DNA of 32,000 nucleotides, from the NCBI RefSeq assembly GCF_000025505.1, contig NC_013849.1, forward strand, positions 360,001-392,000, in the 5' to 3' direction. The stretch is from Ferroglobus placidus DSM 10642 (GTDB lineage Archaea; Halobacteriota; Archaeoglobi; Archaeoglobales; Archaeoglobaceae). This document shows positions 5,300-32,000 of the stretch, piece after piece. Below the pieces are notes generated by a model that saw only the letters and a program-made list of their open reading frames with translations, was not told the origin of the DNA and did not search any database. Every line of letters begins with the position of its first letter. The first letter of the stretch is position 1. Both the position numbers and the translations under genes were made by a program.

Positions 5300-5657
5300 C
5301 TCCGAGTACTGAGCCGCGCTGAATTAAGTAATTATATTGAATATCAGTCTTAAATTCCGAGTCCTTTAAAACATCTCGTGCAACAGCGAATAGAATTATA
5401 AGGGAAGTCAATCTTTGCTGACCATCCACTACCTCGTATGTAACACTATCTTGACTTTTGAGGAGAACTGTGCCTAAGAAGTAACTTTCTTGACCGCTTT
5501 CCATGGCATCCAAAATATCCTCTATCAATGCCTGAAAATTGTCTTCATTCCAGCTGAACGGTCTTTGATAAATAGGTATTTCAAAAAGGTGATTACTCAG
5601 GAGTTTTCTTACTATAATCTCCTTAGCCTCTATTTTGGAAGAAACTTCCTGAGGCAT
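5238..5657 (-). CDS. DUF262 (ParB-like) N-terminal fragment of the disrupted GmrSD-like gene
   Basis: Track ORF, 139 aa, with QRPFSW and DGQQRLTS motifs. Confidence 0.8.
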   Translation of the reverse strand: MPQEVSSKIEAKEIIVRKLLSNHLFEIPIYQRPFSWNEDNFQALIEDILDAMESGQESYFLGTVLLKSQDSVTYEVVDGQQRLTSLIILFAVARDVLKDSEFKTDIQYNYLIQRGSVLGGVPDRERISVWKDLRELFSK

Positions 5658-5701: not shown

Positions 5702-6802
5702 TTACAGCTGCGTAAAAATCCTCCTCGGTACATTCAGCCTTATAAAATAGCTCCCTCCAATTCCTCTCCTTTCCATGGTTATCAGTCCATATTTCGCAAG
5801 CCTTTCAAGGTAATACCTGAGCATCCTGTCCCTAACTCCAGAAGGATACACCCTTCTGTAGAGCTCATAGAACTCCGGATAGAAAATCCCGTTCTCAGGT
5901 ATGAGCGAGATTATCTTCCTTTCCTTCGATGAGAGCTGCTCCACAATGCTCTTTGCCTTTGCGAACTGCGACTCCGAGAGAGCCTGCTTTATGTGCTCAA
6001 CAGTTACCCTGAACTTCCCATCCTGCCTTGCAAGCTCTCCTGCCCTGAGCAAAGTTTCTCTGGCTATCCTCACATCTCCTCCCATCTCGCAGGCGACCTC
6101 TGCCAGGTACTCCACTGCCTCTTCATCCACCACTCCCTTCTGAAATGCAAATTCGACGCGAATCCTGATTATCTCCTTCATCTCGTCAATAGTGTAAGCC
6201 CTGTAGGGAATTTCTTCAACAGGGCGAAGAGAGCTCTTTATTCTGGGATCAACGTTCATGAACACGAACTGATCGTTTGTTATCATGATAAGCTGCACAG
6301 GAATCGATTCCTCTCTGAGCCTTGAGAGGTCGTAGAGGACTTCGGAGCCGCGTGGCAAAAGATGATCGACCTCGTCAAGGCATATCACAGGAAATACCCT
6401 GCTCTTCTTCAGCTCGGAAACGAGCAGGTCGAAAAGCTCGTCATACGCAACACCTCTCCTAGAGGGAATTCTCCTTGTCGGTCTTACTTTTCTGAAAAAC
6501 TCGAAGATTACTGCATAAACAACTCCCATTCTCGTGTTGATGCGGAAGCAGTTTATGTAAACGGGAAATGCAGCAGTTTCCTCTTCAAGCTTTCTGAAGA
6601 TGAACTTCACAGAAGCAGTCTTTCCGGTACCGGGTGGACCAAATATGAAGATGTTTGAAATGCTCTCGGGATTTTTCAGAGCCGAGTTTATTATGGACGA
6701 GATTGCCTTTATCTCCTTCTCCCTATGGGGGAGATGATCGGGTATGTAATCAGGAAATAAAACCTCCTTCTGCCTGAAAACAGGATCCTCGTACGAGTAC
6801 AT
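5702..6802 (-). CDS. cdc6: Orc1/Cdc6 family AAA+ replication initiator paralogue
   Basis: Walker A GPPGTGKTASV, Walker B VICLDEVDHL, and a C-terminal winged helix (YLERLAKYGLITMERRGIGGSYFIRL). The track ORF extends to 6853. The ATG at 6802 (MYSYEDPVFRQKEVLFPDYIPDHLPHRE) fits the family N-terminus and leaves room for a TATA-like CTTTAAAAATTC upstream. Confidence 0.9.
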   Translation of the reverse strand: MYSYEDPVFRQKEVLFPDYIPDHLPHREKEIKAISSIINSALKNPESISNIFIFGPPGTGKTASVKFIFRKLEEETAAFPVYINCFRINTRMGVVYAVIFEFFRKVRPTRRIPSRRGVAYDELFDLLVSELKKSRVFPVICLDEVDHLLPRGSEVLYDLSRLREESIPVQLIMITNDQFVFMNVDPRIKSSLRPVEEIPYRAYTIDEMKEIIRIRVEFAFQKGVVDEEAVEYLAEVACEMGGDVRIARETLLRAGELARQDGKFRVTVEHIKQALSESQFAKAKSIVEQLSSKERKIISLIPENGIFYPEFYELYRRVYPSGVRDRMLRYYLERLAKYGLITMERRGIGGSYFIRLNVPRRIFTQL

Positions 6803-6876
6803 GATTAAAATTAGCTTAGAAGAATTTTTAAAGCTGAAAGGAGTAGATTGCAAAGTTTAAAATAATTTCTTTCTCT

Positions 6877-9042: not shown

Positions 9043-9672
9043 ATGAAAAAGTTCACGAAATACGTGCTCGCGGAATTCGGAGGGAAGGTGATAACAAGAG
9101 AAGAATTTGAGAAAGCCTGTAGAAGGTTTGGAGAAAATACTGAAAGAGCGGTAAACTTCATGATATCATACGGTTATCTTGTAAGAATTCTGCGAGGGCT
9201 TTATTACGTGAAAACTCCCGAAGAGTTCAGCATGGGAAAAAGCGTCGATACATTGAAAATAATCTCTCTCGGAATGAACAGGTTGGGAGTAGAGTGGTAT
9301 TTCGGTCTGAATACTGCTCTCAGGCTCAACGGAGTTACGCACGAGTTTTCTCCGGTGATACACGTGATCAGCGATTCCATCTACAGGCCGAAGACAATAG
9401 AGATCAACAGAGAGGATGTAAAGTTCATAAAGCTGAAAAAGAATCTCTTCGGTTTTGGAGTTGTTGAGAAAAATTCGATGAAATACTCGGATCTTGAGAA
9501 AACACTCCTCGACATGGTTTATCTCTCGAGATACCGATCTACGCCCGAGGAAAGGATTGTGGCAACCCTGATAGAATACGGAAAGAAAGCCAGAAAGAAA
9601 AAGCTTGCTGAATATCTAAAGCGCTATCCGAAAAGTGTTGAGAGAGTGGTGAAAAATGCCGGACTTGTCTGA
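9043..9672 (+). CDS. abiEi: AbiEi-like antitoxin/transcriptional regulator (type IV TA)
   Basis: 209 aa with an N-terminal wHTH and an RGLYYV motif. It overlaps and precedes an AbiEii-type gene, which is the canonical arrangement. Confidence 0.7.
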   Translation: MKKFTKYVLAEFGGKVITREEFEKACRRFGENTERAVNFMISYGYLVRILRGLYYVKTPEEFSMGKSVDTLKIISLGMNRLGVEWYFGLNTALRLNGVTHEFSPVIHVISDSIYRPKTIEINREDVKFIKLKKNLFGFGVVEKNSMKYSDLEKTLLDMVYLSRYRSTPEERIVATLIEYGKKARKKKLAEYLKRYPKSVERVVKNAGLV

Positions 9673-10567
9673 GTTTGTTGCTTTCGTGGCCGAGAAATCG
9701 GGAATTCGGAAACCATCTCTAATAGAGAAAGACATTCTCATCCACAGAATTTTAAAGGGAATAAAAGAGAATTTCGGAGACAGCTACCTTTTCAAGGGTG
9801 GTAGCTGTATTGTGAAGTGCTACTTTGGCTATTACCGTTTCAGTGTGGATCTGGATTTCACATGGAGGGAGCAGGAAAAATGGAAAAGTCTCGGAAAGAG
9901 AAGGCTCAGAAAAGAGCTTGTCGCTCACGCCGGAAAATTCGCCTCGGTTCTTGAGAGTATTTCAGGTGAGACGGAGCTTGATTTCAGATGCGATCTGAAA
10001 AATACAAACTACGTTGAGTTCGGCAGCGGGAGCAGGATGGTGACATTCAAGCTCTGGAAGGACGGAGAGCTCATAAAGGTTCAGGTAAATTTTGTTGAGG
10101 AACTGCTTTTTCCTCATGAAAACAGAATCGCAGAAACGCTTCTTTCCGGGAAGAGGCTGAAAAGGGATGAAATGGCATACTTTCAGGACTTTCTTGATTT
10201 TTACACACCCTTTAAAGTCGCATGCTACAGTCTTAAGGAGATTCTCTGCGAGAAGATACGTGCGCTTCTAACGCGGCAGGCTTTCAAGCTCAGGGATGTT
10301 TACGATGTTTTCATGATCGAAAAAGCGGGAATGAAGGTTGAGAATTTCAGGGAGGAAATCATGAAAAAGATCGTGGCTGCCATGAAGTTTGAGAGATACA
10401 GAAAATCAGTGGAGAGGAGTGCTGAAAGCATCGAGCTTGAAAGTGTGATAAGCGATCCCTACGAACTCGAGATATTTATTTCAAAACCTGAAAGTGAGTT
10501 TTTCTCCTTTGCGAAGAAACTGGAAAATTTTCTTAGGGAAATTGCAACTAGTGCAGTAAAACTTTAA
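9656..10567 (+). CDS. abiEii: AbiEii/AbiGii (DUF1814) nucleotidyltransferase toxin
   Basis: LIEKDILIHRILKGI...YLFKGGSCIVKCYFGYYRFSVDLDFTW is the family-defining N-terminal signature (FKGG..RFS.DLDF). Confidence 0.85.
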   Translation: MPDLSEFVAFVAEKSGIRKPSLIEKDILIHRILKGIKENFGDSYLFKGGSCIVKCYFGYYRFSVDLDFTWREQEKWKSLGKRRLRKELVAHAGKFASVLESISGETELDFRCDLKNTNYVEFGSGSRMVTFKLWKDGELIKVQVNFVEELLFPHENRIAETLLSGKRLKRDEMAYFQDFLDFYTPFKVACYSLKEILCEKIRALLTRQAFKLRDVYDVFMIEKAGMKVENFREEIMKKIVAAMKFERYRKSVERSAESIELESVISDPYELEIFISKPESEFFSFAKKLENFLREIATSAVKL

Positions 10568-15884: not shown

Positions 15885-16671
15885 TATGATCGATTCGCTC
15901 AGAAGATTTCTCAGCGGTGTATGCAGACTCTCTCCGGAATTCATGCGGGAAATCAAGGTAGGTGAGCGCGTCAGGCTTAAGCCTGGAGAGATTTCGAATG
16001 ATTATCTTTTAAGCACAGCCTACAGGCTGCTCTGGAAGAGGAAGGAAATGTACTCGATTGAAATACGGAAAGGTGATGAAATAAACTGCTTTGCATCTGC
16101 AGGGAATACGGAAGCTCTTGAATATCTGCTGAGAAGACTCATGGCCGTGTATACCTTTCCAGAACTTGAGCCTGCATGCATTCAGCTTCCTGAAAAAGAA
16201 TGCTATGTCTCTGCTGGCTATGTTAAGCTATCAGGAACTCCCTACATGCTTCACGATCCCGAGCAGAATATCCTGACTCATGCCCTTGCTGCAGCGGATA
16301 ATGTGTTTGTGCAGTTTCTTTTCAAACCCGAGAAGATCGTTCTTGAAAGACTTGGTTATGAAAGCCCTGTTTTCAAGCTTCGTGTTTCTGTTGCAAGCTT
16401 TTCAGAGAGCTGGAAGGAGGCTGTGAATTCCTGTAAGCGTGTACTCGAGAGCTTCACAGTTCTGAGTTCTGCATATTCATCCCTCGTGCCAGTAATTCCA
16501 AGAGTGCCGAATTCGTGCGTTCTGCTCAGAAGCATGCTGGAGAGAAGGTTTCTTCCCGGTGATAACTTTAGAGTTACAGCTGAGGAGCTCGCCATGATCA
16601 CGAAAATTCCCGGTGATATTGTTGATAATCGGCACAGCAGGGAAAAGAAAACTGAAGATACCGATAAGTGA
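15877..16671 (+). CDS. hypothetical protein, possibly the N-terminal domain of the downstream ATPase
   Basis: 264 aa (GTG at 15877 or ATG at 15886). It ends ..VTAEELAMITKIPGD.. and overlaps the next ORF by 59 nt in a different frame. Confidence 0.6.
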   Translation: MVDMIDSLRRFLSGVCRLSPEFMREIKVGERVRLKPGEISNDYLLSTAYRLLWKRKEMYSIEIRKGDEINCFASAGNTEALEYLLRRLMAVYTFPELEPACIQLPEKECYVSAGYVKLSGTPYMLHDPEQNILTHALAAADNVFVQFLFKPEKIVLERLGYESPVFKLRVSVASFSESWKEAVNSCKRVLESFTVLSSAYSSLVPVIPRVPNSCVLLRSMLERRFLPGDNFRVTAEELAMITKIPGDIVDNRHSREKKTEDTDK

Positions 16672-18376
16672 TATCTTGCAGCACCAGCACGTGATAGGCG
16701 CGACAGGTACGGGAAAGAGCACTTTTCTGGCAAATCAGGCTGTGCAGGCGTTTGAAGAGGGAGCATGCTGCGTTGTGATAGATCCGCACGGGGATCTCGC
16801 TCTTGATATCCTGAGAGCTGTTAATCCGGGGGATCTTGGTAAGGTGTACTTTCTCGATCCCGTCAGAGTGCGCTTTTCTCTAAACCCGTTAGAGCTTCCC
16901 GCGGAGTGCCACAGCAGAGAAATAGCCGTTGAGAGAATGATAGGCGAGATCACCGAATTTTTCAGAAAATTCTATGGCAGGCAGTACTGGGGGCCGTCGC
17001 TGAACAGGATATTTCAGGAAGGGCTGAGAGCTCTCTACGAGAAAGATGACGCCCCCACGCTTGGTGATCTCTACGATCTCGTGAGCGGAAGAATAAGGCA
17101 TGAGGAATTTGAAAAAGAGCTGAAAAAGCTGCCGAGGGGAAGGACAGATGCCGTGCTCAACAAGCTCGCACCGTTTGTCAGGAACAGGTTTCTCTCCAGA
17201 ATTCTATGCTCAAAACCGGCAAGCGTCAGGATTGAAGAGCTCATGAAGCCGGGGAGCCTGGTGATTTTCAGGCTTTCCAGAGGAGAGATTTCTGAAGCTG
17301 TTTCATCCCTTCTCGGCTCCGCGATAATAACGCAGACGTGGCTCCATGCAATCTCCCGAGAGAGCAGGTTTCTGGTAATTCTTTTCATTGACGAGCTCCA
17401 GATATTCTCGCATCTTGAAACTCTCTGCAGCATTCTCTCGGAAGGAAGAAAGTACGCTATCTCGCTTGTTGCAGCCCATCAGCACCTGAAACAGCTTCCG
17501 GAAAAACTTCTCAACGATCTTCTTGGAAACGCAGGAATGAGGGTTGTTTTCAGGGTTTCCGGAGAGGATGCGAGAACTCTCGCAAGGGCTCTGGGAAATG
17601 AAGACATTTCTGAAAGACTTATCTCTCTTTCGGATGGAAGAGCAGTTGTGTGGATAAGGGGAAGCTTCAGGGAAGTGGAGAGGATTGTGGAGATTTCAAC
17701 ACTCCCGCTGATTTACAGAAATCCGTTTTCCGAACATGCCACAGATAGAATGCGGAAGCTTTTTGAAATTCCCGAAAGAGAGGAGGAATTTGCTGATCCT
17801 GAGATTTACGAGCTTCTCCACATTTTGCTAGAGAAAAGCATGAGCATGAGCGAGATATTTGAGAAATACAGGAAAATCCTTCCGGGAGTGAAAGCGAGCT
17901 ATGTCTCTGCTCTTGTTGAAAGAGTTGAAAGGCTCGGATTTGTTAAGAGGAATGTCGTGAAGCAGAGAAGGGGAAGGCCAAAGATTGTGGTTGAGCTGAG
18001 CGAGAAAGCTGTTGAACTTCTTGATCTAAGGCACACCTCGAGAAGAGCCGGAGGTGAGCTTCATTCGAAACTCGCAAAGATCTGCGCTGAAAGGTTAAGA
18101 AAAGATGGATGTGCCGTGATATTTCCTCCTCAGGCTGGAAGAGAAGAACAGCCGGACATGATAGCTTATAAAAGATCTCCTGATGGATGGGAAGAGATTG
18201 CGGTTGAAATTGAAACTAGAGCGGATCACCCTGAGCAGGTGATGAGAAACTACAAGAAGAATATCCGAAAGGGAAGGAAAGTAATTTTCGTTGTTCCGGA
18301 CGAGAGAATTGCTGAAAGAGTGAGAAAAATTCTTGGGGATAGGGATTACACTGTTGAAGTGACTGAATATTTTTAA
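16613..18376 (+). CDS. HerA/FtsK/T4CP-superfamily (DUF87-like) ATPase fused to wHTH and PD-(D/E)xK-like nuclease domains
   Basis: Walker A GATGTGKST, then VVIDPHGD, Walker B LVILFIDELQIF and VAAHQHLKQL. A MarR-like wHTH (SEIFEKYRKILPGVKASYVSALVERVERLGFVKR) follows. The C-terminal PDMIAY..EIAVEIET is a restriction-endonuclease-like motif. It has a GTG start only, and its frame opens at 16598. Confidence 0.8.
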   Translation: MILLIIGTAGKRKLKIPISDILQHQHVIGATGTGKSTFLANQAVQAFEEGACCVVIDPHGDLALDILRAVNPGDLGKVYFLDPVRVRFSLNPLELPAECHSREIAVERMIGEITEFFRKFYGRQYWGPSLNRIFQEGLRALYEKDDAPTLGDLYDLVSGRIRHEEFEKELKKLPRGRTDAVLNKLAPFVRNRFLSRILCSKPASVRIEELMKPGSLVIFRLSRGEISEAVSSLLGSAIITQTWLHAISRESRFLVILFIDELQIFSHLETLCSILSEGRKYAISLVAAHQHLKQLPEKLLNDLLGNAGMRVVFRVSGEDARTLARALGNEDISERLISLSDGRAVVWIRGSFREVERIVEISTLPLIYRNPFSEHATDRMRKLFEIPEREEEFADPEIYELLHILLEKSMSMSEIFEKYRKILPGVKASYVSALVERVERLGFVKRNVVKQRRGRPKIVVELSEKAVELLDLRHTSRRAGGELHSKLAKICAERLRKDGCAVIFPPQAGREEQPDMIAYKRSPDGWEEIAVEIETRADHPEQVMRNYKKNIRKGRKVIFVVPDERIAERVRKILGDRDYTVEVTEYF

Positions 18377-18410: not shown

Positions 18411-18695
18411 ATGGAGGGTATAGAGAAGATTAAGAACGAAATAATCCCTGTGCTGAAAAAGTATGATGTGAAGAGAGCAAGTCTATTTGGCTCTATTGTC
18501 AGAAAAGAGATGACAGAAAAAAGCGATATAGATCTGCTTGTCGAATTCGAAGGAAAGAAAAGCCTTCTAGATCTCGCAGAACTGAAAATTGAATTAGAGG
18601 AGAAACTTAAGAGAAAGGTCGATGTCCTCACGTATAAATCAATACATCCCTTACTGAGAGAAAGAATTCTGAGTGAAAAGGTGGATATCCTGTGA
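18411..18695 (+). CDS. mntA: MNT-type nucleotidyltransferase (antitoxin of HEPN/MNT pair)
   Basis: [22 protein letters not shown] (GS..R....SDxDLLV). SD AAGGTG lies 8 nt upstream of the ATG at 18411. The track ORF starts at the GTG at 18402. Confidence 0.85.
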
Positions 18696-19045
18696 AGAAG
18701 GATATTAGAACTTTTCTGCTACACATTCTCGAAAGCATAGAGATTATAGAAAAGCATACGCACGGTGTAAATAGGGAAGAGTTTATGGAAGATGTGAAAA
18801 CACAGGATGCCGTGTTAAGAAGGCTTGAAATTATAGGTGAAGCTGTAAAAAATATTCCGCAAGATTTCAGGGAAAAGTATCCTGAAATACCTTGGAAAGC
18901 GATTGCCGGAACAAGAGATATTCTGATTCACGAATACTTTGGAGTTGATCTCGATCTCGTATGGGAGATAATTGAAAGGGATCTGCCAGAGCTTAAAGAA
19001 AAAATAGAAAGAATTCTGAAGGATTTAGAGTTTTCTGAGAAGTAA
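18692..19045 (+). CDS. hepT: DUF86 HEPN-domain RNase (toxin of HEPN/MNT pair)
   Basis: The Rx4-6H motif is in [14 protein letters not shown]. It has a 4-nt GTGA overlap with the MNT gene. Confidence 0.85.
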
Positions 19046-19178
19046 AGCACAACTATCGGAAAAAAGAGAATAAAAGAGAGCTGTTCTGGAAAAAAGAAAG
19101 TTGCTGAGAGAAATGGTTATACTATTAGTTGGGTTTTAGCATGCAAGTCTTTTTAAATGTCTCCAGCTAAATTTTATT

Positions 19179-19562
19179 GTGGCTGAAATGCTCGAAATGG
19201 AAAGGGAAACACTCGAAAGGTTCAAAAAGAAAGTTCTGAACAAGCTCGAGGATAGGGTTCATGCTATAGTAATTTACGGTTCTCTTGCAAGAGGAACATA
19301 CACGAAGGATAGCGACATAGATATTCTCGTGATAGGTGAAAACAAAGCGGACTGGGAAAGGGTTTCGAGAATAGCCTACGAGATCGATTATGAAAACGGC
19401 TTCAGGACGTTTATAACTACGATGTTCCTCACGAAGAACGAATTCGAGCAGAGGTTGAAAGCAGGAGATCCCTTTATTCACAACGTGCTGAGGGAGGGTG
19501 TGGTTCTTTATGACACGGGTGTCTATGAAGGATTTCGCAAGAGCATGCTTGAAGCTCGCTGA
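19179..19562 (+). CDS. MNT-type nucleotidyltransferase (second pair)
   Basis: VIYGSLARGTYTKDSDIDILVIG. Confidence 0.85.
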   Translation: MAEMLEMERETLERFKKKVLNKLEDRVHAIVIYGSLARGTYTKDSDIDILVIGENKADWERVSRIAYEIDYENGFRTFITTMFLTKNEFEQRLKAGDPFIHNVLREGVVLYDTGVYEGFRKSMLEAR

Positions 19563-19902
19563 AGATTTTGAAGATACAAAACCTGTGCTTGAACATTCAA
19601 GACTGATAACTGCCGTGAACTGCGCCTATTATGCTATGTTTCACGCGGCTCAGGCAATTCTCGCGTTTAACGGCATAGGGCCATCGAGAACTCACAGGGA
19701 TCTGAGAGAGGTTTTCGGAAAGGAGATCATTCTTAAAGGTCTTGCTGACAGAGAGCTTGGAAGGGTGTTGAGCAGAGCTTTTGAGCTGAGGCAGGCAAGC
19801 AGTTATGAAGTTTATGCCCACTTTGGCGAGGATGTTGTGAGGGAGATTGGGAAGAAAAGTGGGGGATTCGTTAAAAGGATAAAGGAATTCATGTCAGAGT
19901 AG
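19525..19902 (+). CDS. HEPN-domain protein (second pair)
   Basis: All-helical. AYYAMFHAAQAIL and LRQASSYE are typical of PF05168-type HEPN proteins. The ATG at 19525 is preferred over the track GTG at 19498. It overlaps the MNT gene. Confidence 0.75.
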   Translation: MKDFARACLKLAEDFEDTKPVLEHSRLITAVNCAYYAMFHAAQAILAFNGIGPSRTHRDLREVFGKEIILKGLADRELGRVLSRAFELRQASSYEVYAHFGEDVVREIGKKSGGFVKRIKEFMSE

Positions 19903-20075: not shown

Positions 20076-22001
20076 ATGTTTAAACTGGTGGTACCAAGTA
20101 TGATTCCAGAGATTTCACGAATATTAATGAGTTACAAAAAATCTTTGGATAAATCGAGAAGTAGGTACGAATCAATGTATAAAGAAAGATCTAAAAATGT
20201 AGAACGTTTTTATAATTCTTTTCTTAAGAACTTAATTATTACTCTTCATAAAGAAATTAATGATCCTGAAAAAAGAAGAGATGTTATTAGATTAATAAAA
20301 AATTTTTTCAGAAATGATAAAATAAAATTTATAGCTGTTGATGGAACTTGCTACAAAAACCAATTAGTAGATTATATGATCTTTTTTGGCGCATCTTATG
20401 CTATTAGAGGAACTATAGATCTAAACACATACCCGCCAAAAATTAAATATGAAAAATTTGCAGCAGAAGAAGATGTTAGCATGGTTGCATATGTTCCAAT
20501 TCCCTTTGCTGAGTTGGGGGAGGTTCTAGAGGAGAATTATCAATTTGTGAGTTCTGATGAGACAAGAATCGACCTCTCATCTATACATGTTCTTTTAATG
20601 CAATTAGCGGAGATCTATTTGCTTTACTCATTAGCAAAAAGGAGTGCATTGGAAGCACCTAAACTTCTATTGTGGGATCACTCTATTAGTAGTATTCTAG
20701 CAAGTACTGATGTGGGAATTATAACCCAAGAAGGAACTCCAAAAATAAAGCTCATTGGCTTTCATGAAACAGGTAGAGCTCTTTTAATTCAGGATGTAAT
20801 TATCGCGTATTCCCGTCCATGGAATAGTGAGTTAGATATACCAACGCCAAAGGAGTTTAGAATGTATAACTACGTTATTAGGAAAGCTTTTGAAAAAGGT
20901 AAAGAAGGTATAACGTTAGAAGAATTATCTCAACAATCTGGTGTCTCCAAGGACAGAATTTTGGAGAAATTAAAAGAGAGTAAAAAACTTGGGAAATATA
21001 TAATAAAAGATAAAAATGATATATCTTCAACCATCGAAGAGCAACCAATCCTTATTTTTGATAATGATAAAATCTTCTTTAACGAATTTTTCAGAGGATC
21101 ATGGAGGTTTGTAGTGGGAATCTTTGAGTATATCTGTGAGAAATTATTCAAAGAAAAGGATCCAGAGGCATTGATATATCGAAAATATACACCTGAGGGT
21201 GAAAAAGAATGCTGGCTTACACCAGATGATCTACGTTTTCTAATCGCAGTAGGCTTAAGAGCACTGATAGAAGAATGTTGGAAACAGGGAATATTATTCG
21301 TGGGTGTTGTAAAAGATTCGTCCACAAAGTATTTCAGTAAAAATTACATTGGGATATGCAAACATCTTGGAATATATAACTTCGATGATTCTTTAGCAAC
21401 ATTACCTTTACCATGGACTGACAGAACTCTTTTGGAGTTATTGCCTTATATTGACGAAAAAATTGAAGCACCGTGGAGTACAATAGAATTCGATTCCGTA
21501 TTCATGCAGCTTCACTTAGTGCAAACCCCAGACGGTAAGATTGAAATTCATGGTGTAAGAGGTGAAGCTACGAATCCTGAAAGAGTAGTTTTAAGGTCTT
21601 TAGCTCAATTTTACATAAATAGAAATCTCTACACTCCCTTAACAGGACATGTAATATTTATTGATAGAATAGCATTTCCTAGCGAAGATAAAAAATATTA
21701 CGGAGATAATAGACTCATTATTGAAACTAGAAGGCTTGGAAAAATAAAACCAGTCTTCTTCAAAGATAAAAATGAGAACAATATAATTCAGAAAATAATG
21801 CTTATTTTATTATCAGAGTTAACAAAAAACCTTTATCCAGAAGTTATTGGCTATCCAGATCCTTTACACAAAGCCGATTGGGGTGCAAAAAGTATATTGA
21901 AAAAAGTCAAACCTATTATTGACTCTGGAGAAATATCATTCAGAGCGCGCCCATTGAGAAAAACTCTCAGGGAACTAAGAGAAGAAGTAAGAAGATCGTA
22001 G
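20076..22001 (+). CDS. NurA-like nuclease with an embedded wHTH domain (641 aa)
   Basis: Motifs in NurA order: KFIAVDGTCY (DGS/T), MQLAEIYLL (E), LLLWDHSISS (hhhhD), LFVGVVKDSSTKYF (K-S) and GYPDPLHKADWGAK (YP..L..AD..A). The central segment KEGITLEELSQQSGVSKDRILEKLKESKKLGKYII is a clear HTH/wHTH. Strongly AT-rich codon usage. Confidence 0.7.
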   Translation: MFKLVVPSMIPEISRILMSYKKSLDKSRSRYESMYKERSKNVERFYNSFLKNLIITLHKEINDPEKRRDVIRLIKNFFRNDKIKFIAVDGTCYKNQLVDYMIFFGASYAIRGTIDLNTYPPKIKYEKFAAEEDVSMVAYVPIPFAELGEVLEENYQFVSSDETRIDLSSIHVLLMQLAEIYLLYSLAKRSALEAPKLLLWDHSISSILASTDVGIITQEGTPKIKLIGFHETGRALLIQDVIIAYSRPWNSELDIPTPKEFRMYNYVIRKAFEKGKEGITLEELSQQSGVSKDRILEKLKESKKLGKYIIKDKNDISSTIEEQPILIFDNDKIFFNEFFRGSWRFVVGIFEYICEKLFKEKDPEALIYRKYTPEGEKECWLTPDDLRFLIAVGLRALIEECWKQGILFVGVVKDSSTKYFSKNYIGICKHLGIYNFDDSLATLPLPWTDRTLLELLPYIDEKIEAPWSTIEFDSVFMQLHLVQTPDGKIEIHGVRGEATNPERVVLRSLAQFYINRNLYTPLTGHVIFIDRIAFPSEDKKYYGDNRLIIETRRLGKIKPVFFKDKNENNIIQKIMLILLSELTKNLYPEVIGYPDPLHKADWGAKSILKKVKPIIDSGEISFRARPLRKTLRELREEVRRS

Positions 22002-22016
22002 CAGAGGTGTAGAGTA

Positions 22017-23288
22017 ATGGAGATATTTAGGTTAGAAGGTTTTAATGGAAGGCTCTTAGCGGCGGAACCTGATGAACGAAGTAGATATAACTTTACTATA
22101 TGGTTTCCATATACTCGTGAACTTGTAAATGATATTCAAGATGGAGATCTTCTTGCAGTACCAAATTTCCAAAGTGACAGGGAACGGCCAGTATATAGTA
22201 TCTTAAAAGTTACAAATGTTCTTCCAAAGCATTTTGCATTACGAGGAAAGGAAGATACGAAGTCTTATCCTGGATATGTGTTAGAAGCAGCAAAAAATAT
22301 TGCAGCTTCGTGGGTTATTCAAGAAAGTGAACCATTAGAGGATACTACAATAATAGAGGTAGAAGCAATACCCACAAACTTGCAATTTAGGTTAAATGAA
22401 CAGAACAATCCAATTATAGAGGAAGAGAAGAGTATGCCAATGGTTGGAGAAGAAGTAAAATTACTATCCCCAGAATTTGTAATGAAAATCTTAAACAGTG
22501 GTATAAAATTTGGTTATGAGGAAATTATAGAGATAGGTCATTTAATTAGAGATAAAGAGATAAAGATTTACGTGAGAGTTGAAGATCTTGTAAGGACACA
22601 TTTCGGGATATTTGGTTATACTGGTGTAGGAAAAAGTAATCTTCTAAGCACAATTATCAGAAAACTTCTAACTGAAACAATTAAAATAGATGAAAAGCAG
22701 TTGCCTAAAAAAGAAATAAGAGAGCGAGAAAATATTAAAATCCTACTTTTTGATCTTATGGATGAATATATAAGTTTATTGATAGATCTGTTAGTGAATA
22801 ACAATCTTGATTCAAAAATAGTTTACATTGACCGAAGATCACTACCTAAAGCGGTAATCGATTATTTAAAAGGAAATGAGACTTTGATTAAAGCGATACA
22901 TGCTTTTTTGAGACAAATGTATATCCCAAAGGGATTATTAGACTGCAAGGATAAATATTATGAAAGAATAAGAGAAATTCTCGAGAAGGATAGAATAAAG
23001 ATTTGGGAGGAAGAATTTGAAATTAAGACTATCGATGAACTTATAGAAAAGATTTGGCCTGAAGTAATAGGAGATCTAAGATCCACTACAAAAATATCAA
23101 CTCTAGAAAGAGTAAAAGAGGATATACTCTCAGATGTAACTGGAAATGAGTTAACTCCAGAAAATTTGGATAAGATACTATCTAAACTTGGGGAAAGTAG
23201 TGTTTTTGGCTATCCACAACCTCAAAGTGTGATAAACTTACGAAAACAAAAAGATGGTAATGCCTCAGTAATGTTTATATTCAATTAG
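22017..23288 (+). CDS. HerA-like (DUF87) ATPase, 3'-truncated by IS insertion
   Basis: SD GAGGTG at 22004-22009. N-terminal barrel-like domain, then THFGIFGYTGVGKSNLL (Walker A) and ILLFDLMDEY (the hhhDphgEY motif that follows Walker A in HerA). No Walker B (hhhhDEAH) appears before the ORF runs into the IS inverted repeat at 23256. The last 10 codons (GNASVMFIFN) and the stop are IS sequence. Confidence 0.75.
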   Translation: MEIFRLEGFNGRLLAAEPDERSRYNFTIWFPYTRELVNDIQDGDLLAVPNFQSDRERPVYSILKVTNVLPKHFALRGKEDTKSYPGYVLEAAKNIAASWVIQESEPLEDTTIIEVEAIPTNLQFRLNEQNNPIIEEEKSMPMVGEEVKLLSPEFVMKILNSGIKFGYEEIIEIGHLIRDKEIKIYVRVEDLVRTHFGIFGYTGVGKSNLLSTIIRKLLTETIKIDEKQLPKKEIRERENIKILLFDLMDEYISLLIDLLVNNNLDSKIVYIDRRSLPKAVIDYLKGNETLIKAIHAFLRQMYIPKGLLDCKDKYYERIREILEKDRIKIWEEEFEIKTIDELIEKIWPEVIGDLRSTTKISTLERVKEDILSDVTGNELTPENLDKILSKLGESSVFGYPQPQSVINLRKQKDGNASVMFIFN

Positions 23289-27049: not shown

Positions 27050-27091
27050 CATTTGTATTTGTATTTTTAGAATTGTATTCGCTCAAACCAG

Positions 27092-27165
27092 TAGCCCCGG
27101 CCGGATTCGAACCGGCGTCGCCGGATCCAGAGTCCGGCAGGATTGTCCTACTACCACACGGGGCT
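27092..27165 (-). tRNA. tRNA-Gln (anticodon CUG), weak D-stem
   Basis: Acceptor stem AGCCCCG/CGGGGCT. Anticodon arm CCGGA-CTCTGGA-TCCGG (U33, CTG, G37). T arm GCCGG-TTCGAAT-CCGGC. Discriminator A, with no encoded CCA. The D arm TGGT-AGTAGGACAA-TCCT has only two G-C pairs, flanked by T-T mismatches. Confidence 0.75.
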
Positions 27166-27220
27166 ATAGGTGGACAAACTGTTCCCCCTTTCTCCAGCTC
27201 CAGAACAGCCACAGATCATC

Positions 27221-30049
27221 CTAATCCTCGCTCACATCCTCAATCCAGCGGATGCTCTCATTAAACTCAGCATCAATCTCCTCCTCTTCCCCTCCTTTTC
27301 CTCCAGCTCTCCCACCTCCTCTCCTGCCCTCTCCAAACATCTCCTTGAGCTCCTGCGTGACCTCCTTTTTCCCGTCCACGGTTATGAGGTAATATCCAGC
27401 CCCTCCCTTTGCAAACCTGACAACGGGGAAGTCGAAGTCCTCCGGAGGGAATATCAGAACCAGGCAGTCCTCCCCATACCTCGGTATGCTGTCCTTGAAC
27501 TCCTTTGCGGGGTCGAACTCGACCCTCTTCACAACCCACCCCCTGCTGCTTGCCTCACTGACAGTGCAGATGTAACCGTCTTTGCCGTAAAGCACCCCTC
27601 CCTTCTCATACGCCTCCTCATTCGTATGCTTGTTGACCCACAGCTTCCTGCCCATGCGGTCCCTCGCAACCTCATTCGTCTTGTAAAGCCCGTCCCTCCC
27701 CCTCATGTTCTCAACAACCTCTACAATGTGCTTTGCAATTGAGATGTATTCCCCAGCACTCTCTCCATGCCCGAGAACAGCGTAGATCAGGTAGTATCCT
27801 GCCTTGTAGGCTCTTGCAAGCTTCTTCAGCAGCATCCCCGGCCTTCTCTGCGTTGCCACCTCCACCTCAACCAGGATCCTGTCCTTTTTAAAGAGATTGT
27901 AGCATCTATCCCTCTCCTCTCCCTCTGGCGGGAGTTTCAGTACAAGATCTGGAACGTAGTTGTCCAACCCGGGCAGAGAAACACCACGCTTCGGAACCTC
28001 TACAATGTAGCCGAGAGACGTGAAGTACTCGTAGGCTCTGATGATCAGCCTTCTGTGGTCAACAAATCCATCCGTCACCTCCCCCAACTTATCCACCCAG
28101 AAGGCCTGCCTGATCCTGTCAAGATTTGGCACAACCACGCTTCTCCCGGAAGCCATATCCGTTTTCAGCTCAATGTATTCTCTGTCCGCATCCGCAGCTA
28201 TCTCTATGAAGCTGTCGTACTTCCTGTCATCAATCTTAACCCCCCTCTTCCTGCACTCCTCCATGAACGTCTGCCTGCTGACATCAACCCCCTTTATCGC
28301 CAGCACATACAGAACCTCAAGCAGCTCCCCAATTAACCCGGCCTTGCGCTGGATTGAGCAGATCTCCTTTATCTTAAGCAGAGCATCTGAAAGCTGCATC
28401 TCGCTCATCCTCTCAAGCCCGTATCTTTCAAGCGAGGCCCTTGCAACCTCCACTATCCCCTCTCTGCTCCTCAAAGGCTCTGATGGAGGATAGGTTTGAA
28501 TTACAAACGGGTCTGACAGCTGATTTCTCACCATAATGCGCACCATTGCTTTATACAGACCAAGAGACAGCATGTCCTCCACCCTCACACCCGGAAATCT
28601 TTTGATGAGTACGGATGCATCTGCGGGGTTCTGCGCGTTGAAGGCTATTATTGTTCCGCAGTTTGAATACACAGCCTCTCTCACCTTTGGAGAGAGCTGC
28701 GACGGGTACTGGGTTGCAACAATCAAACCAAGCCTGAATGCCCTTGCCTCAGAGAGAATCTCGTCAAAGGTGGAGCCCTCGAAAGCAAAGTTTGAGAACT
28801 CGTCAATGTAGAGGAAGAAGGGCTTTCTGTCTTCAGGTCTAAGCTTCACCCTCGACTTCGCAGCAGCCCATATCTTTGACAGGACAGTGGTTCCCACAAG
28901 CTGCATTATCGTTTCTCCAACCTCTCCCTTCGGAACCCTTACGAGGATTATCTTGTTCGTGTCTATCGCCTCCCTGAAGTCGAAGGAGGATTTTCTGTGG
29001 GTCACAATCTGCCTTGCCACCTTGTTCATCACCCAGTCGTTCAAACGCCTTATAACGGGCTCCATCACATCATCCTTCATCTCATTGACCTTGAGCAGGT
29101 ACTCCCTTATTATGGGGTCATCAACGCTCTCAGCAAACTTGTTCCTCACATCATCATCTGTGAGAAGAACGTAGAGGTCGAGGAAGGTTAGCTGATCCCT
29201 CTCACCAACCCTCTCGTTGAAGTCCAGCACTGCCCTTACAAGAGTCTCAAAAATTCTTCCGAATCGCTCACCCCATATCTGCGTTTGCTGCCTCATCAAC
29301 GCAACAAGATCTGCAACAACAACCTCCTTCATCGCATTGATCTGTCCCTCATCCATGTTCTTTCTGGGGAGCTCCAGAAAGTTCAACCCGACAACCTTGT
29401 CGTAGTTTGCCGGATCGATGAGTATAACGTCCTTAATCCTGTGGTCGGGAATCCTCATCAAAACCTCCTCAATGGCATCACCCTTGGGATCGATGAAGCA
29501 CAAGCCGTAGCCGTTCTGGATGTCCTGCACGATCATGTTCACAAGGGTCGTTGTTTTTCCCGTCCCGGTTGCACCGCACACAAACATGTGCCGGAAGCGA
29601 TCCTCAAGGGCGACCGAGATGTGTCTAATACCCCTTATGTTGTCCCTGTAAACGCCAATATACTGCACACCGGGGTTTGGAGGGGGAAGGTTGATTTTCT
29701 CCCTGCCGAACTCCTGCACCACCCTCATCTCTGACCCTGCACCCGATCCGGTTACGGTTACAGCCCCGCAACCTGCACCTGCCCCATTTACTCCACCCAC
29801 AACTTCTGCAGACACGTCTCTGTCCCCAACATCTCTGCCCCCTCCAGCCTCAGAACCTGCGCGCCCTACACTGCCCACGCTGTTCCTCAGGTCCGGGAAA
29901 AGATCGTACTTGCTCTCCACAGCCTTTACCACATCGCTAAACCTGATTCCTTTTCCCACTCCCTTCTTTTTATTCTCCTCCCTCCCTCCTCCTTCTTTTC
30001 CCTTTTCCTTTATCTTTTTAAACACGTTCAGCATGATCCTCACCTTCAC
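27221..30049 (-). CDS. large HerA/FtsK/T4CP-superfamily ATPase with wHTH-like and PD-(D/E)xK-like domains plus a C-terminal extension (942 aa)
   Basis: Gly/Ala-rich low-complexity N-terminus. Walker A CGATGTGKTTTL, then LCFIDPKGD, Walker B FFLYIDEFSNF and IVATQYPSQL. Later VPDLVLKL..ILVEVEVA (nuclease-like). It shares its architecture with 16613..18376. Confidence 0.8.
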   Translation of the reverse strand: MKVRIMLNVFKKIKEKGKEGGGREENKKKGVGKGIRFSDVVKAVESKYDLFPDLRNSVGSVGRAGSEAGGGRDVGDRDVSAEVVGGVNGAGAGCGAVTVTGSGAGSEMRVVQEFGREKINLPPPNPGVQYIGVYRDNIRGIRHISVALEDRFRHMFVCGATGTGKTTTLVNMIVQDIQNGYGLCFIDPKGDAIEEVLMRIPDHRIKDVILIDPANYDKVVGLNFLELPRKNMDEGQINAMKEVVVADLVALMRQQTQIWGERFGRIFETLVRAVLDFNERVGERDQLTFLDLYVLLTDDDVRNKFAESVDDPIIREYLLKVNEMKDDVMEPVIRRLNDWVMNKVARQIVTHRKSSFDFREAIDTNKIILVRVPKGEVGETIMQLVGTTVLSKIWAAAKSRVKLRPEDRKPFFLYIDEFSNFAFEGSTFDEILSEARAFRLGLIVATQYPSQLSPKVREAVYSNCGTIIAFNAQNPADASVLIKRFPGVRVEDMLSLGLYKAMVRIMVRNQLSDPFVIQTYPPSEPLRSREGIVEVARASLERYGLERMSEMQLSDALLKIKEICSIQRKAGLIGELLEVLYVLAIKGVDVSRQTFMEECRKRGVKIDDRKYDSFIEIAADADREYIELKTDMASGRSVVVPNLDRIRQAFWVDKLGEVTDGFVDHRRLIIRAYEYFTSLGYIVEVPKRGVSLPGLDNYVPDLVLKLPPEGEERDRCYNLFKKDRILVEVEVATQRRPGMLLKKLARAYKAGYYLIYAVLGHGESAGEYISIAKHIVEVVENMRGRDGLYKTNEVARDRMGRKLWVNKHTNEEAYEKGGVLYGKDGYICTVSEASSRGWVVKRVEFDPAKEFKDSIPRYGEDCLVLIFPPEDFDFPVVRFAKGGAGYYLITVDGKKEVTQELKEMFGEGRRGGGRAGGKGGEEEEIDAEFNESIRWIEDVSED

Positions 30050-30100
30050 CTTCCCCCTATCCCAGCAGGCCCAGCTCTTGGGTGCGAGGGCTTTGAGCGC

Positions 30101-30337
30101 TCAGCCATACAGCATCCCCACATTCTTTATCCTCCGTTTTGGTTTCTTACCCTCCCACCTCTCGCACGAGTGGTTTGCTGGAGTGATCATTCCTCTGAGG
30201 CCGCAGTAGCCATCACTCTCATCAACCGAATGCCAGCACCTGCAGCCAATACATCTCCCCCTGGGCAAGTTTCTCCACTTACTCCTGCCTTTTTTCTTAA
30301 CCTTCTTACCTGTTCTTTTCTTTCTCTCTCCGGCCAT
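30101..30337 (-). CDS. small basic Cys-rich (zinc-binding?) protein
   Basis: 78 aa with a Lys/Arg-rich N-terminus, then CIGCRCWHSVDESDGYCGLRGMITPANHSCERWE. Co-oriented between the two ATPase genes. Confidence 0.55.
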   Translation of the reverse strand: MAGERKKRTGKKVKKKGRSKWRNLPRGRCIGCRCWHSVDESDGYCGLRGMITPANHSCERWEGKKPKRRIKNVGMLYG

Positions 30338-30340
30338 GCC

Positions 30341-30370
30341 CTTCTCTACCCTTCTCTACCCTTCTATCCC
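30341..30370. repeat. 10-bp tandem repeat CTTCTCTACC x2 plus the degenerate copy CTTCTATCCC
   Basis: Read directly. It lies immediately upstream (on the - strand, as GGTAGAGAAG repeats) of the ATG at 30337. Confidence 0.6.
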
Positions 30371-30377
30371 TTTGCCC

Positions 30378-30461
30378 CTACCTCAACCCATCTGTAGCGA
30401 TGGTTGCAACAGCAACAGTAACGTTAAAGACCCAGGACGCGACCACACCCACACCTCTCAT
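30378..30461 (-). CDS. 27-aa hydrophobic peptide (speculative small membrane/pilin-like ORF)
   Basis: MRGVGVVASWVFNVTVAVATIATDGLR, preceded by GGAGAGG directly upstream of the ATG. It sits between the VirB4-like gene and the Zn-protein gene. Too short for the track. Confidence 0.3.
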   Translation of the reverse strand: MRGVGVVASWVFNVTVAVATIATDGLR

Positions 30462-30502
30462 CCTCTCCTATTTACTTTCCAATCTACACTCTTTCCCATA
30501 CT

Positions 30503-32000
30503 CTACACACCTCTCCCTGAAGCCTCAAGATAGGCCTTCTCCACAGGATTAGCTATAACGTTCATGTGGTAAATGCCGGCTGGAGTGATGAGCAGAGCAG
30601 AGGAGTAGCCCGCAGTTTTTCCCTGTGCAGCTTCCTTCACAAACCCCTCCCCAGATGCCGGGATGTCCAGTATCCTCTTAACCTCTTCCGGTATCGCCTC
30701 CAGCCTGAAGATGACGTGTATGTCTGCATTGGAGATTATCGTCCTCCCCTCCTCAAATCTGATGAACTCGTCATATCCCTGTGTGACGAGAGTGTAGCCT
30801 GTTTTGTGGTGCCTTGAGTGCCTCACCTCTCTCTCAAGAAACTTTCTGATCTGCCTGTAGGCCATGAAGTAGTGGGCCTCATCCACCACCACCATCTTCT
30901 TACCCTTCTCAGCCCTCTCTCTCGATCCAATCCACGTCAAAACTGCATGCAGAGGTAGAGGGCTCTTCTCAACACCCTCCACTGCTGAGAAGTCGAAGTA
31001 AACAACCCTGTTTCTGATATTGACATCCGTTCGCCCGTTGAACATGCTTAATTCAGCTGTAAAGGCGCTCATTGCGGACTTTATTCTCTCAGCAGCCCTC
31101 CTTTCTTCCTCACCCACGGGAACCTGGTCGATCTTCTCGATGACGTCGTCTATAATCACATCCCTGAACTTCTTATCCACGTAGGCCTTGATTATTGCCT
31201 TCCTCAGCACTCCAGATTCGGCCTTGTCCAGCGGGCTACCAACTTCTTCCTCAAAGAATGTTGAGAAGAACTCAAGGAGAGACATCAGCTTGTCCTTCAG
31301 CACCGACTGAGGTGTCTCGCCTTCCGGGACGAAGATGTCGAGGGGGTTCATGACGTTCTTGCCAACCACAACCCTCTGGGCCCCGAGCACGGCAGCGAGA
31401 TCCTTGAAGCCTGCAAGCGGATCGACAAGGAAGATCCTTACCTCAGGATCATTCAGCACCCACCTCGCAACCTCAAGCTTTGCGAAGAAGGATTTTCCAC
31501 TCCCTATTTTTCCGACAACGATCTCGTTGTGTCCTGCAAATTTGAACCTGTCAACTATGATCGGTGACTTTGTTGCAACATCATAGCCGTACAGCACTCC
31601 ACTCTCGTGCATGAGGGTGGGGAAGACGAAGGGGAAGCAGGACGCAGCGGCCTCGCTGTCCACCAGCACCTTCCTGCTGAGATAATCCTTTCCCTCAGGT
31701 AAAAGTGTTTTGAAGGCTTCGAGCATCCTGTACCTTATTCTCTTCAGCTGACACCCCTTTGCCTTCATCCTCTTGTTGAAGTCTGCAAAGTAATCCTCAG
31801 CAGCATTCTTGTCATCAGCAAGGATGTAGAAGTAAGTGCTTAAGGTGTAAAGCTTTGTCTGCCTTGACACAAGCCTTTCCCTGTAGCTGTATAGGTATTC
31901 AAGCTCGTGCTCCAGAGATGTCGTGTCAGTTCTACCCTTCTCCCTCATCTCCTGCAGCTTTGCCTCCAGCTGGGTTATGCGCCTGTTAAGCTCGTTCACA
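30503..32000 (-). CDS. VirB4/TrbE-like (AAA_10/DUF87) conjugation-type ATPase, 5'-partial (open at window edge)
   Basis: Walker A VVGKIGSGKSFFAKL, then IFLVDPLAGF, Walker B MVVVDEAHYFM and YTLVTQGYDEF. The frame is still open at 32000, so the GTG 'start' in the track is an edge artefact. Confidence 0.8.
   Translation of the reverse strand, partial: VNELNRRITQLEAKLQEMREKGRTDTTSLEHELEYLYSYRERLVSRQTKLYTLSTYFYILADDKNAAEDYFADFNKRMKAKGCQLKRIRYRMLEAFKTLLPEGKDYLSRKVLVDSEAAASCFPFVFPTLMHESGVLYGYDVATKSPIIVDRFKFAGHNEIVVGKIGSGKSFFAKLEVARWVLNDPEVRIFLVDPLAGFKDLAAVLGAQRVVVGKNVMNPLDIFVPEGETPQSVLKDKLMSLLEFFSTFFEEEVGSPLDKAESGVLRKAIIKAYVDKKFRDVIIDDVIEKIDQVPVGEEERRAAERIKSAMSAFTAELSMFNGRTDVNIRNRVVYFDFSAVEGVEKSPLPLHAVLTWIGSRERAEKGKKMVVVDEAHYFMAYRQIRKFLEREVRHSRHHKTGYTLVTQGYDEFIRFEEGRTIISNADIHVIFRLEAIPEEVKRILDIPASGEGFVKEAAQGKTAGYSSALLITPAGIYHMNVIANPVEKAYLEASGRGV

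Follow-up and report, generated by a model that had tools for sequence, protein, structure and literature searches.

How does an archaeal conjugative element prepare its DNA for transfer? No relaxase is known in these elements; surveys report a VirB4 ATPase and a type IV coupling protein (T4CP) (PMC3158045, PMC6563490, PMC9905601). The question is raised by a chromosomal locus of Ferroglobus placidus DSM 10642, in a stretch of 32,000 nucleotides (NC_013849.1, positions 360,001 to 392,000 of the forward strand; this whole stretch is "the window" in what follows, and positions are counted from its first letter). An earlier note, made by inspecting the sequence, took the rightmost part of the window, from 27221 onward, for one end, rich in G+C, of an integrated element resembling a conjugative plasmid. 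We argue that this part is the tRNA-Gln-proximal end of an archaeal integrative and conjugative element (ICE) whose coupling protein would substitute for a relaxase; taken as a whole, this is the best explanation of the region and, in our judgment, a probable one. That the end of an ICE is present is well supported, and archaeal ICEs are already a known kind of element. The tail of the coupling protein is another matter: a winged helix-turn-helix (wHTH) followed by a nuclease-like domain with a PD..ExE motif, it is proposed here as a candidate that may stand in for the relaxase that archaea lack.

The coupling protein: motor and tail

The gene closest to the tRNA specifies a protein of 937 amino acids. 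The earlier note had called it T4CP-like, and the assignment holds at the level of protein families: the Pfam models TrwB_AAD_bind (PF10412) and T4SS-DNA_transf (PF02534) are matched at 26.7 and 22.1 bits (cut-offs of 20.5 and 20.1, respectively). The Walker A (GATGTGKT), Walker B (IDEF) and ATQ motifs are conserved across the aligned relatives. Full-length relatives, at 56-75% identity, come from metagenome-assembled genomes (MAGs) of Archaeoglobales and from vent metagenomes; the ATPase part is also ~35% identical (E ~1e-65) to hundreds of entries named [quoted passage not shown], mostly from Patescibacteria. (Outside the archaea the nearest relatives of the ATPase domain are the T4CPs of the Patescibacteria, or Candidate Phyla Radiation, and not those of the Proteobacteria.) An N-terminal transmembrane anchor is missing: hydrophobic segments are absent from residues 1-500 of the 937-residue protein and from the whole of its 587-residue paralogue, which is encoded farther to the left in the window. 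Judged by its sequence, the 937-residue protein is a soluble coupling protein of the TraG/VirD4 type; in F. placidus and at 4 related loci its gene is linked to VirB4 and pilin genes. Two further features to which the earlier note had drawn attention are also there: the Gly/Ala-rich N-terminus, which alignment shows to be an insertion found only in this strain's protein, and the C-terminal extension, which is ~150-200 residues long, beta-rich and kept in close relatives. One homologue (P0007, 1100 residues) carries an intein (PF14890), apparently placed directly after the Walker A lysine (GTGYGK followed by C...).

An AlphaFold (AF2) model of residues 500-937 (predicted local distance difference test score, pLDDT, 80) arranges what follows the ATPase in three domains: a winged helix, a nuclease-like domain and a beta-rich domain. 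The winged helix is matched by Foldseek in the Protein Data Bank (PDB) to MarR/PadR regulators (probability 0.75-0.89, target template-modelling (TM) score ~0.5, E 0.2-0.5). Since winged-helix matches dominated the Foldseek output for the whole three-domain model, the nuclease-like domain was modelled alone (AF2, pLDDT 80.6). Its helices and strands (H20-35, E39-41, E59-62, E82-87, H94-106, E110-115) come in the order alpha-beta-beta-beta-alpha-beta, and residues invariant in the family fall at the catalytic places of PD-(D/E)xK enzymes: helix 1 holds H..E, strand 2 opens with PD, and strand 3 contains VExE. A Lys or Arg is conserved in the helix after the ExE strand. The best PDB matches are Archaeoglobus Hjc, the VRR-nuc domain of FAN1, PspGI and PvuRts1I, all at E >= 0.2 (for Hjc, 2wcw, E 0.2, probability 0.63 and TM 0.35-0.40); the top 50 matches among the predicted viral structures of BFVD are mostly VRR-NUC proteins, PD-(D/E)XK nucleases and Holliday-junction resolvases (probability up to 0.99, E 2e-3 to 9e-2). 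On these models a PD-(D/E)xK fold is likely, and nuclease activity is possible. The beta-rich domain has no fold match in Foldseek and no match in Pfam; it is kept in the relatives P0002-P0007, P0010 and P0121, and partly in Natrinema. The ATPase-wHTH-nuclease layout that the earlier note had read from the sequence is real, then, in the sense that alignments, domain models and nuclease-dominated (if marginal) fold matches agree on it.

A search of the available literature found no paper reporting a nuclease domain in archaeal conjugative TraG proteins, and the word "nuclease" is absent from the Sulfolobus islandicus traG study (PMC9899855). The winged-helix and nuclease-like tail on archaeal coupling proteins is apparently undescribed.

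How widespread is the architecture?

A search with the tail alone, against 1.8 billion representative proteins, yields 4 real relatives; tblastn against plasmids yields none. This rarity is only apparent, an artefact of sensitivity, because full-length alignments and hhalign reveal a wide spread. Full-length tblastn with the T4CP aligns haloarchaeal megaplasmid T4CPs over residues 121-789; the homologue on Natrinema pNATPE02 stands in a pilin ... VirB4-like ... T4CP cluster, and its tail is homologous to the F. placidus tail (hhalign 97.9%, E 3e-13). Residues 12-549 of the 587-residue paralogue align with a protein from a plasmid of Thermococcus nautili, and residues 17-549 with the 1035-residue TraG-like protein of pBEU9E1, a pNOB8-like plasmid of Saccharolobus shibatae. 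In hhalign, pBEU9E1 TraG and a paralogue-type profile match at 99.2% (E 2.8e-19) across the ATPase, the winged helix and "RPDFLAL ... IAVEIES ... HIEQVVRN", so that the earlier comparison with pNOB8-type plasmids was apt, with the qualification that only the 587-residue paralogue, 26% identical to the 937-residue protein, aligns with pBEU9E1 TraG at that level. A profile of the 937-type domain gives weak hhalign values with single Sulfolobales and Thermococcus sequences (21% and 5%), though the motifs line up. In a nine-sequence alignment drawn from Archaeoglobales, Halobacteria, Thermococcales and Sulfolobales, the only invariant residues are a G, the D of PD and both E of ExE. Homologues are found in the transfer gene clusters of haloarchaeal and Sulfolobales plasmids. 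The layout recurs across four archaeal orders, and it therefore appears as a common architecture of archaeal conjugative TraG proteins.

Could these proteins be defence effectors instead, HerA-type ATPases equipped with a nuclease and merely residing in a defence island? Defence genes abound in the window (GmrSD, AbiE, HEPN/MNT, a HerA-like ATPase), there are weak matches to HerA_antiphage models (1e-5), and the 587-residue paralogue has no VirB4 partner. The proposal is nevertheless highly improbable: the 937-residue protein is always found beside TraC-like and VirB4 genes and scores above the cut-offs of the T4CP models of Pfam, homologues belong to the plasmid transfer clusters just mentioned, and conjugation in Sulfolobus depends genetically on the homologue there (PMC9899855).

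The element around the coupling protein

Four minus-strand reading frames had been listed in the earlier note for this end of the window, of 942, 78 and 27 residues and a VirB4-like frame left open at the window edge; all are present, in the places given in Table 1. The 27-residue frame is called by no gene caller in any assembly, has no other support and is probably not a gene. The 78-residue protein matches no Pfam or NCBIfam family; its gene is specific to the F. placidus element, and related elements have no counterpart between VirB4 and T4CP.

The VirB4-like protein, 604 residues long when complete, matches the NCBIfam VirB4-like CD1110 family (NF045971) at 3.6e-55 (2.2e-51 for the 498 residues within the window) and the Mbov_0397 ICE VirB4 family (NF045975) at 1.2e-46. 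Because its scores lie below the equivalog cut-offs (187.6 bits against 325 for NF045971; 43.5 bits against 643 for TIGR00929), it is a VirB4 homologue that falls outside those bacterial subfamilies; the VirB4/TrbE-like ATPase of the earlier note survives in this sense, with clear homology below the trusted cut-offs. Positions 20-283 of the CD1110 model are matched by a 282-residue TraC-like protein with two N-terminal membrane helices, and positions 296-833 by the 604-residue protein. Since the two cover consecutive parts of the same model, VirB4 is split here into two genes (L010 2557-6293, window-equivalent 30503-34239). A 294-residue Glu/Lys-rich open reading frame (ORF) lies between the two parts in F. 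placidus alone, and on a related contig (L100) the ATPase part is split again, into 359 and 177 residues.

Past the window edge the element can be followed on a 20.1-kb read-assembly contig (L005/L010; window coordinate = L010 + 27946) that extends to window-equivalent 44092. (The read assemblies, from four runs, all break at window 23986 and at window-equivalent 44092, which bound this contig; the ends at the two break points share no repeat of >=12 nt, and the breaks may be due to repeats elsewhere in the genome or to falling coverage in A+T-rich DNA.) The proteins encoded directly beyond the window carry the names Ferp_0451 to Ferp_0468, and the readable element, at least 17 kb, runs roughly from Ferp_0448 to Ferp_0468. 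Rightward from the T4CP gene the order is: the 78-residue protein, VirB4 (604 residues), the Glu/Lys-rich ORF and the TraC-like protein; a divergent gene (162 residues), a pilin-like protein (140 residues), a membrane-anchored thioredoxin, a prepilin peptidase in two overlapping frames and an archaeal type IV pilin; a type IV secretion system (T4SS) pilin of 100 residues, proteins of 36, 344, 69 and 117 residues and a second thioredoxin; a 231-residue protein with the UniProt name OB-fold nucleic-acid binding protein, a 107-residue protein and a tyrosine integrase of 400 residues. Beyond the integrase lie an XPB/ResIII-like helicase and the C-terminus of an SF1-type helicase. The 100-residue pilin matches PF18895 (4e-10), and one of its relatives also matches TrbC/VirB2; Pilin_N and Peptidase_A24 matches occur among the element proteins. 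The integrase, Ferp_0467, matches Pfam at 3.7e-5 and XerA-type models at 4.8e-11, and its NCBI name is site-specific integrase. There is no Pfam or NCBIfam match to a relaxase among VirB4, the TraC-like protein, the pilin and the other element proteins scanned, a set that leaves aside ORFs of 36, 46 and 69 residues, the peptidase fragments and the right end. VirB4, VirD4, pilins, prepilin peptidase and integrase, with no relaxase, is the set described for archaeal ICEs (PMC6563490, PMC5797428); the transfer module is of the archaeal/monoderm type (MPF-FATA-like).

To the left of the element stands tRNA-Gln(CTG), the sole tRNA that ARAGORN finds in the window. The element adjoins the 5' end of this tRNA, and its outermost gene there is the T4CP gene, exactly 55 nt away from tRNA 5' end to stop codon, just as had been noted from the sequence; this spacer is the presumed left junction. 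The block is also, as noted, more G+C-rich than the DNA to its left: G+C is 0.49-0.53 from 27000 to the window end, 0.446 in the feoAB block and 0.40 in window 1-23985, and the step coincides with tRNA-Gln. The 55 nt upstream of the tRNA (27166-27220) are G+C-rich themselves, without an obvious AT-rich TATA-like box, and the insertion may have displaced the native tRNA-Gln promoter. An intact integrase at a distance of 14 kb or more agrees with the non-split (pNOB8-type) integrase arrangement (PMC2926602, PMC4158269). We infer that integration was into tRNA-Gln. VirB4, T4CP, pilins, integrase and composition step together bear out the conjugative-plasmid-like integrated element of the earlier note.

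At least 4 other Archaeoglobales contigs carry the module TraC-like -> VirB4 -> T4CP (with the small divergent gene) between different flanks: acyl-CoA metabolism genes (L016/L017), Argonaute and helicases (L008), amine oxidase and insertion sequence (IS) fragments (L100). The earlier note had asked whether the region might be conserved and syntenic throughout the relatives, or its ATPases non-conjugative; what is found is differing contexts in other Archaeoglobales and ATPases of conjugative families. Variants of the element's genes, ~96-97% identical, occur in vent metagenome and environmental assemblies. In L008 the pilin cluster lies 20 kb away, in L006. This related element (L006/L008; MAG GCA_054002995.1, JBPLVB010000052.1) is at least 35 kb long, with a Piwi-domain Argonaute, helicases and a histone-fold gene between its T4CP module and its pilin cluster and, beyond the latter, an archaeal set of genes for type IV pilus assembly (T2SSE, T2SSF).

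A set of transfer genes might also serve the host. Conjugation machinery has homologues in the Ced/Ted systems of archaea (PMC9905601), and an apparatus of that kind, with a VirB4-like ATPase and a VirB2-like pilus serving DNA exchange or import and not a selfish element, would be in keeping with the VirB2-like pilin and with weak NCBIfam matches of the T4CP to CedD (4.3e-9) and CedB (2.3e-3). Those matches fall far under the family cut-offs (35.6 against 600 bits), however, and the block is compositionally foreign and includes an integrase; its distribution is patchy, with relatives in different contexts and on plasmids. A Ced/Ted-like role is thus very unlikely.

Mobile element or remnant?

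Several observations weigh against the reading of this region as an ICE end with a nuclease-tailed coupling protein, and they are best considered together. 1) The boundaries are incomplete. BLAST for a second copy of the tRNA/junction region in the 16 kb to the right returns only chance 9-16-mers and no attachment-site (att) repeat, direct-repeat searches of the window and L005 yield nothing att-like, and the readable sequence stops, at window-equivalent 44092, before the right end of the element. No empty site is found among 80 metagenomic FeoB loci, the closest of which are <=68% identical and have no nearby tRNA; genome-collection scans with the T4CP and with the 344-residue element protein find no relative. 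2) No VirB6-like polytopic channel protein is recognised in the readable part of the element. 3) The prepilin peptidase (Peptidase_A24 + Arc_PepC_II) is split into 92 and 165 residues (L010 8213-8946, window-equivalent 36159-36892) because a stretch of seven G residues has lost 1 nt, exactly at the catalytic GAWGGADAK motif and in independent assemblies; it is intact in L009 (255 residues, ~96% DNA identity over the gene) and L008 (248 residues). With the peptidase frameshifted here and VirB4 split in L100, decay is common. 4) The C-terminal region of the coupling protein, searched alone, has no Pfam match even at E 10 and no PDB sequence match with a single sequence or a profile; the nuclease fold matches are statistically marginal (E >= 0.2 in PDB, E >= 2e-3 in BFVD); and where the classical ExK motif has Lys, Glu is found (ExE). 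Glu takes the place of the motif Lys in BamHI as well.

Is the element, then, a decayed and non-transferable remnant, its genes fossil or partly co-opted by the host? The broken peptidase, the missing att repeat and VirB6-like protein and the ORF inserted between the VirB4 parts in this strain only can all be read that way. The frames of T4CP, VirB4, pilin and integrase are all intact, however, the key T4CP residues are conserved, and a near-identical environmental variant has an intact peptidase; moreover, a homopolymer frameshift could be phase-variable or offset by a host peptidase. We consider a dead remnant possible but doubtful. The frameshifted peptidase and the lack of a recognised VirB6-like protein do imply that the element, as an ICE, may be defective or host-dependent.

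A second element to the left

The 587-residue paralogue consists of ATPase, winged-helix and PD..ExE domains only. It matches TrwB_AAD_bind at 2e-16 (60.3 bits) and TraG-D_C at 3e-8 (34.2 bits); aligned with the 937-residue protein, it shares the Walker A, Walker B and Q motifs, and E/G/D/V/E are invariant in the tail. The common layout of the two proteins, first noted by eye, is thus confirmed by alignment of both motor and tail. The earlier note had gone on to propose two related elements in one hotspot. Part of this proposal stands: each element does have a T4CP-like gene. For the rest the left island is a distinct type of element, with an integrase of its own that is unrelated at BLAST level to that of the ICE. 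Its order is AbiEi/AbiEii, integrase, unknown genes, T4CP-like gene and HEPN/MNT pairs; it has no VirB4 and no pilin, and the 587-residue gene is without VirB4 linkage. Compared with the whole window, the ICE proteins match nothing in the left island except the T4CP-like gene, and we reject the idea of the island as another copy of that ICE. The 587-residue gene belongs to a separate, VirB4-less integrated element. The trio AbiEi, AbiEii and integrase also lies upstream of a T4CP-like gene, there fragmented, in L099 34-2867 (MAG GCA_054017175.1). One may speculate that the left element is mobilisable and borrows a mating apparatus.

Coordinates and other genes of the window

Table 1. Features of the two elements and of the tRNA locus, by window position
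Feature	Position	Strand	Basis
AbiEi/AbiEii preceding the left integrase	9043..10567		AbiEi 4.8e-99, AbiEii 9e-24
Tyrosine integrase of the left element, 403 aa	10693..11904	+	Pfam Phage_integrase 2.9e-22, NCBIfam XerA_Arch 1.8e-36
587-aa paralogue: ATPase, wHTH and PD..ExE domains	16613..18376	+	Pfam, alignments
tRNA-Gln, anticodon CTG	27091..27165	-	ARAGORN; 5' end toward the element
Spacer, tRNA 5' end to T4CP stop codon	27166..27220	.	Sequence reading; 55 nt
Coupling-protein (TraG/VirD4-type T4CP) homologue, 937 aa	27221..30034	-	Gene callers, ATG at 30034
Same T4CP ORF, longer form, 942 aa	27221..30049	-	ORF list, GTG start
Beta-rich C-terminal domain of T4CP, residues ~781-890, then Gly/Glu-rich tail	27365..27694	-	Model, pLDDT ~90
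PD-(D/E)xK-like nuclease domain of T4CP (predicted), residues ~645-780	27695..28102	-	Domain model and conserved motifs
Winged-helix (MarR/PadR-like) domain of T4CP, residues ~560-640	28115..28357	-	AF2 model, pLDDT 80
FtsK/HerA-class P-loop ATPase domain of T4CP, residues ~120-500	28535..29677	-	Pfam match, residues 144-481
Basic Cys-rich zinc-ribbon-like protein, 78 aa	30101..30337	-	Gene call on 5 independent contigs
Hydrophobic ORF, 27 aa	30378..30461	-	Mechanical ORF finder only
VirB4/TrbE-like ATPase, C-terminal 498 of 604 aa	30503..32000	-	NCBIfam match; ORF open at window edge

Other genes of the window may be mentioned briefly. HepT-like, nucleotidyltransferase and HEPN toxin-antitoxin genes come directly after the 587-residue gene (18692-19902). 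Next to them stands an A+T-rich pair (20076-23288, G+C 0.32-0.35), a 641-residue protein without a family match followed by a 423-residue HerA-like ATPase (PADLOC HerA "Type III coevolved", 1.9e-37), the third FtsK/HerA-class ATPase of the window; the pair may be a defence module. Toward the left end, on the minus strand, a GmrSD-type restriction endonuclease N-domain extends across two overlapping ORFs (139 and 355 residues, 4232-5657), probably a frameshifted pseudogene, and a Cdc6/Orc1-like AAA+ protein (Cdc6_lid 3.9e-15, 5702-6853) is encoded amid defence and mobile genes.

Comparison with known systems

Close parallels are provided by the pNOB8-type conjugative plasmids of Sulfolobales (pBEU9E1, S. 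islandicus pM164), which pair VirB4/TrbE with TraG/VirD4, have an intact integrase and no relaxase, integrate as ICEs and encode a TraG with the domain order ATPase-wHTH-PD..ExE of the 587- and 937-residue proteins. The differences are considerable: F. placidus is a euryarchaeon and sequence identity is only ~25%; the Sulfolobus TraG measures ~1035 residues and has an extended N-terminal region; in the F. placidus element a VirB2-like pilin can be recognised, along with type IV pilins and a prepilin peptidase, and its readable part shows no repA, parAB or plrA. In gene content the ICEs of Nitrososphaeria (Thaumarchaeota) come close, being tRNA-associated and combining VirB4 and VirD4, a VirB2-like pilin, pilins, a prepilin peptidase and a tyrosine integrase, again without a relaxase (PMC6563490, PMC5797428). 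They belong to a different phylum, however; their att repeats have been demonstrated, and they encode VirB6, TFIIB and ParB. None of these was found in the readable part of the F. placidus element. Natrinema pellirubrum pNATPE02 shares the order pilin ... VirB4-like ... T4CP and a T4CP whose aligned part (residues 121-789) includes the winged helix, the nuclease-like domain and part of the beta domain; here identity is ~30%, the genes are plasmid-borne and the proteins are larger (1019 and 1085 residues).

Bacterial systems offer partial likenesses. The best profiles of the F. placidus VirB4 are Firmicutes/Mollicutes ICE families, and the motor of the coupling protein resembles that of Patescibacteria, as noted above. 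In contrast to the archaeal element, the monoderm and Patescibacteria T4SS (MPF-FATA; Tn916/CD1110-type VirB4 and VirD4) rely on a separate relaxase, HUH or other, and on T4CPs that are usually membrane-anchored and lack a wHTH-nuclease tail. Streptomyces TraB (Streptomyces plasmids are among the tblastn matches of the T4CP) likewise unites pump and sequence recognition in a single motor protein, with a C-terminal winged helix for the latter, but the DNA that it moves is double-stranded and uncut, it lacks a nuclease domain, and it needs neither VirB4 nor a pilus.

A relaxase substitute?

How might a coupling protein of this design work? The scheme that we have in mind has three steps: 1) the integrase would excise the element, and the winged helix of the coupling protein would recognise a site on it; 2) the adjacent PD..ExE nuclease-like domain would nick or cut at the recognised site, taking over from the absent relaxase; 3) the ATPase, as a hexamer, would pump the DNA to a channel and pilus energised by VirB4. 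A T4CP with a nuclease tail would account for the absence of archaeal relaxases. In its general form, with the winged helix and PD..ExE domain as a pan-archaeal coupling-protein module that would cut at the transfer origin with a nuclease of restriction-endonuclease fold and replace an HUH relaxase functionally, the proposal is put forward tentatively, as a possibility on which we would not yet rely. In Sulfolobus no gene but traG has been shown to be essential for transfer: in S. islandicus it is required for transfer and for a unidirectional, Hfr-like (high frequency of recombination) mobilisation from a plasmid origin (PMC9899855). The scheme is compatible with this traG-dependent, unidirectional and origin-like transfer.

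For the step in which archaeal conjugative plasmids and ICEs make their DNA ready for transfer, the tail of the coupling protein now offers a concrete candidate, accessible in a genetically tractable relative, Sulfolobus. The locus also adds to the archaeal ICEs one from the Archaeoglobales with a recognisable VirB2-like pilin and, 9 kb away, a second, VirB4-less element that has its own T4CP-like gene and is possibly mobilisable.

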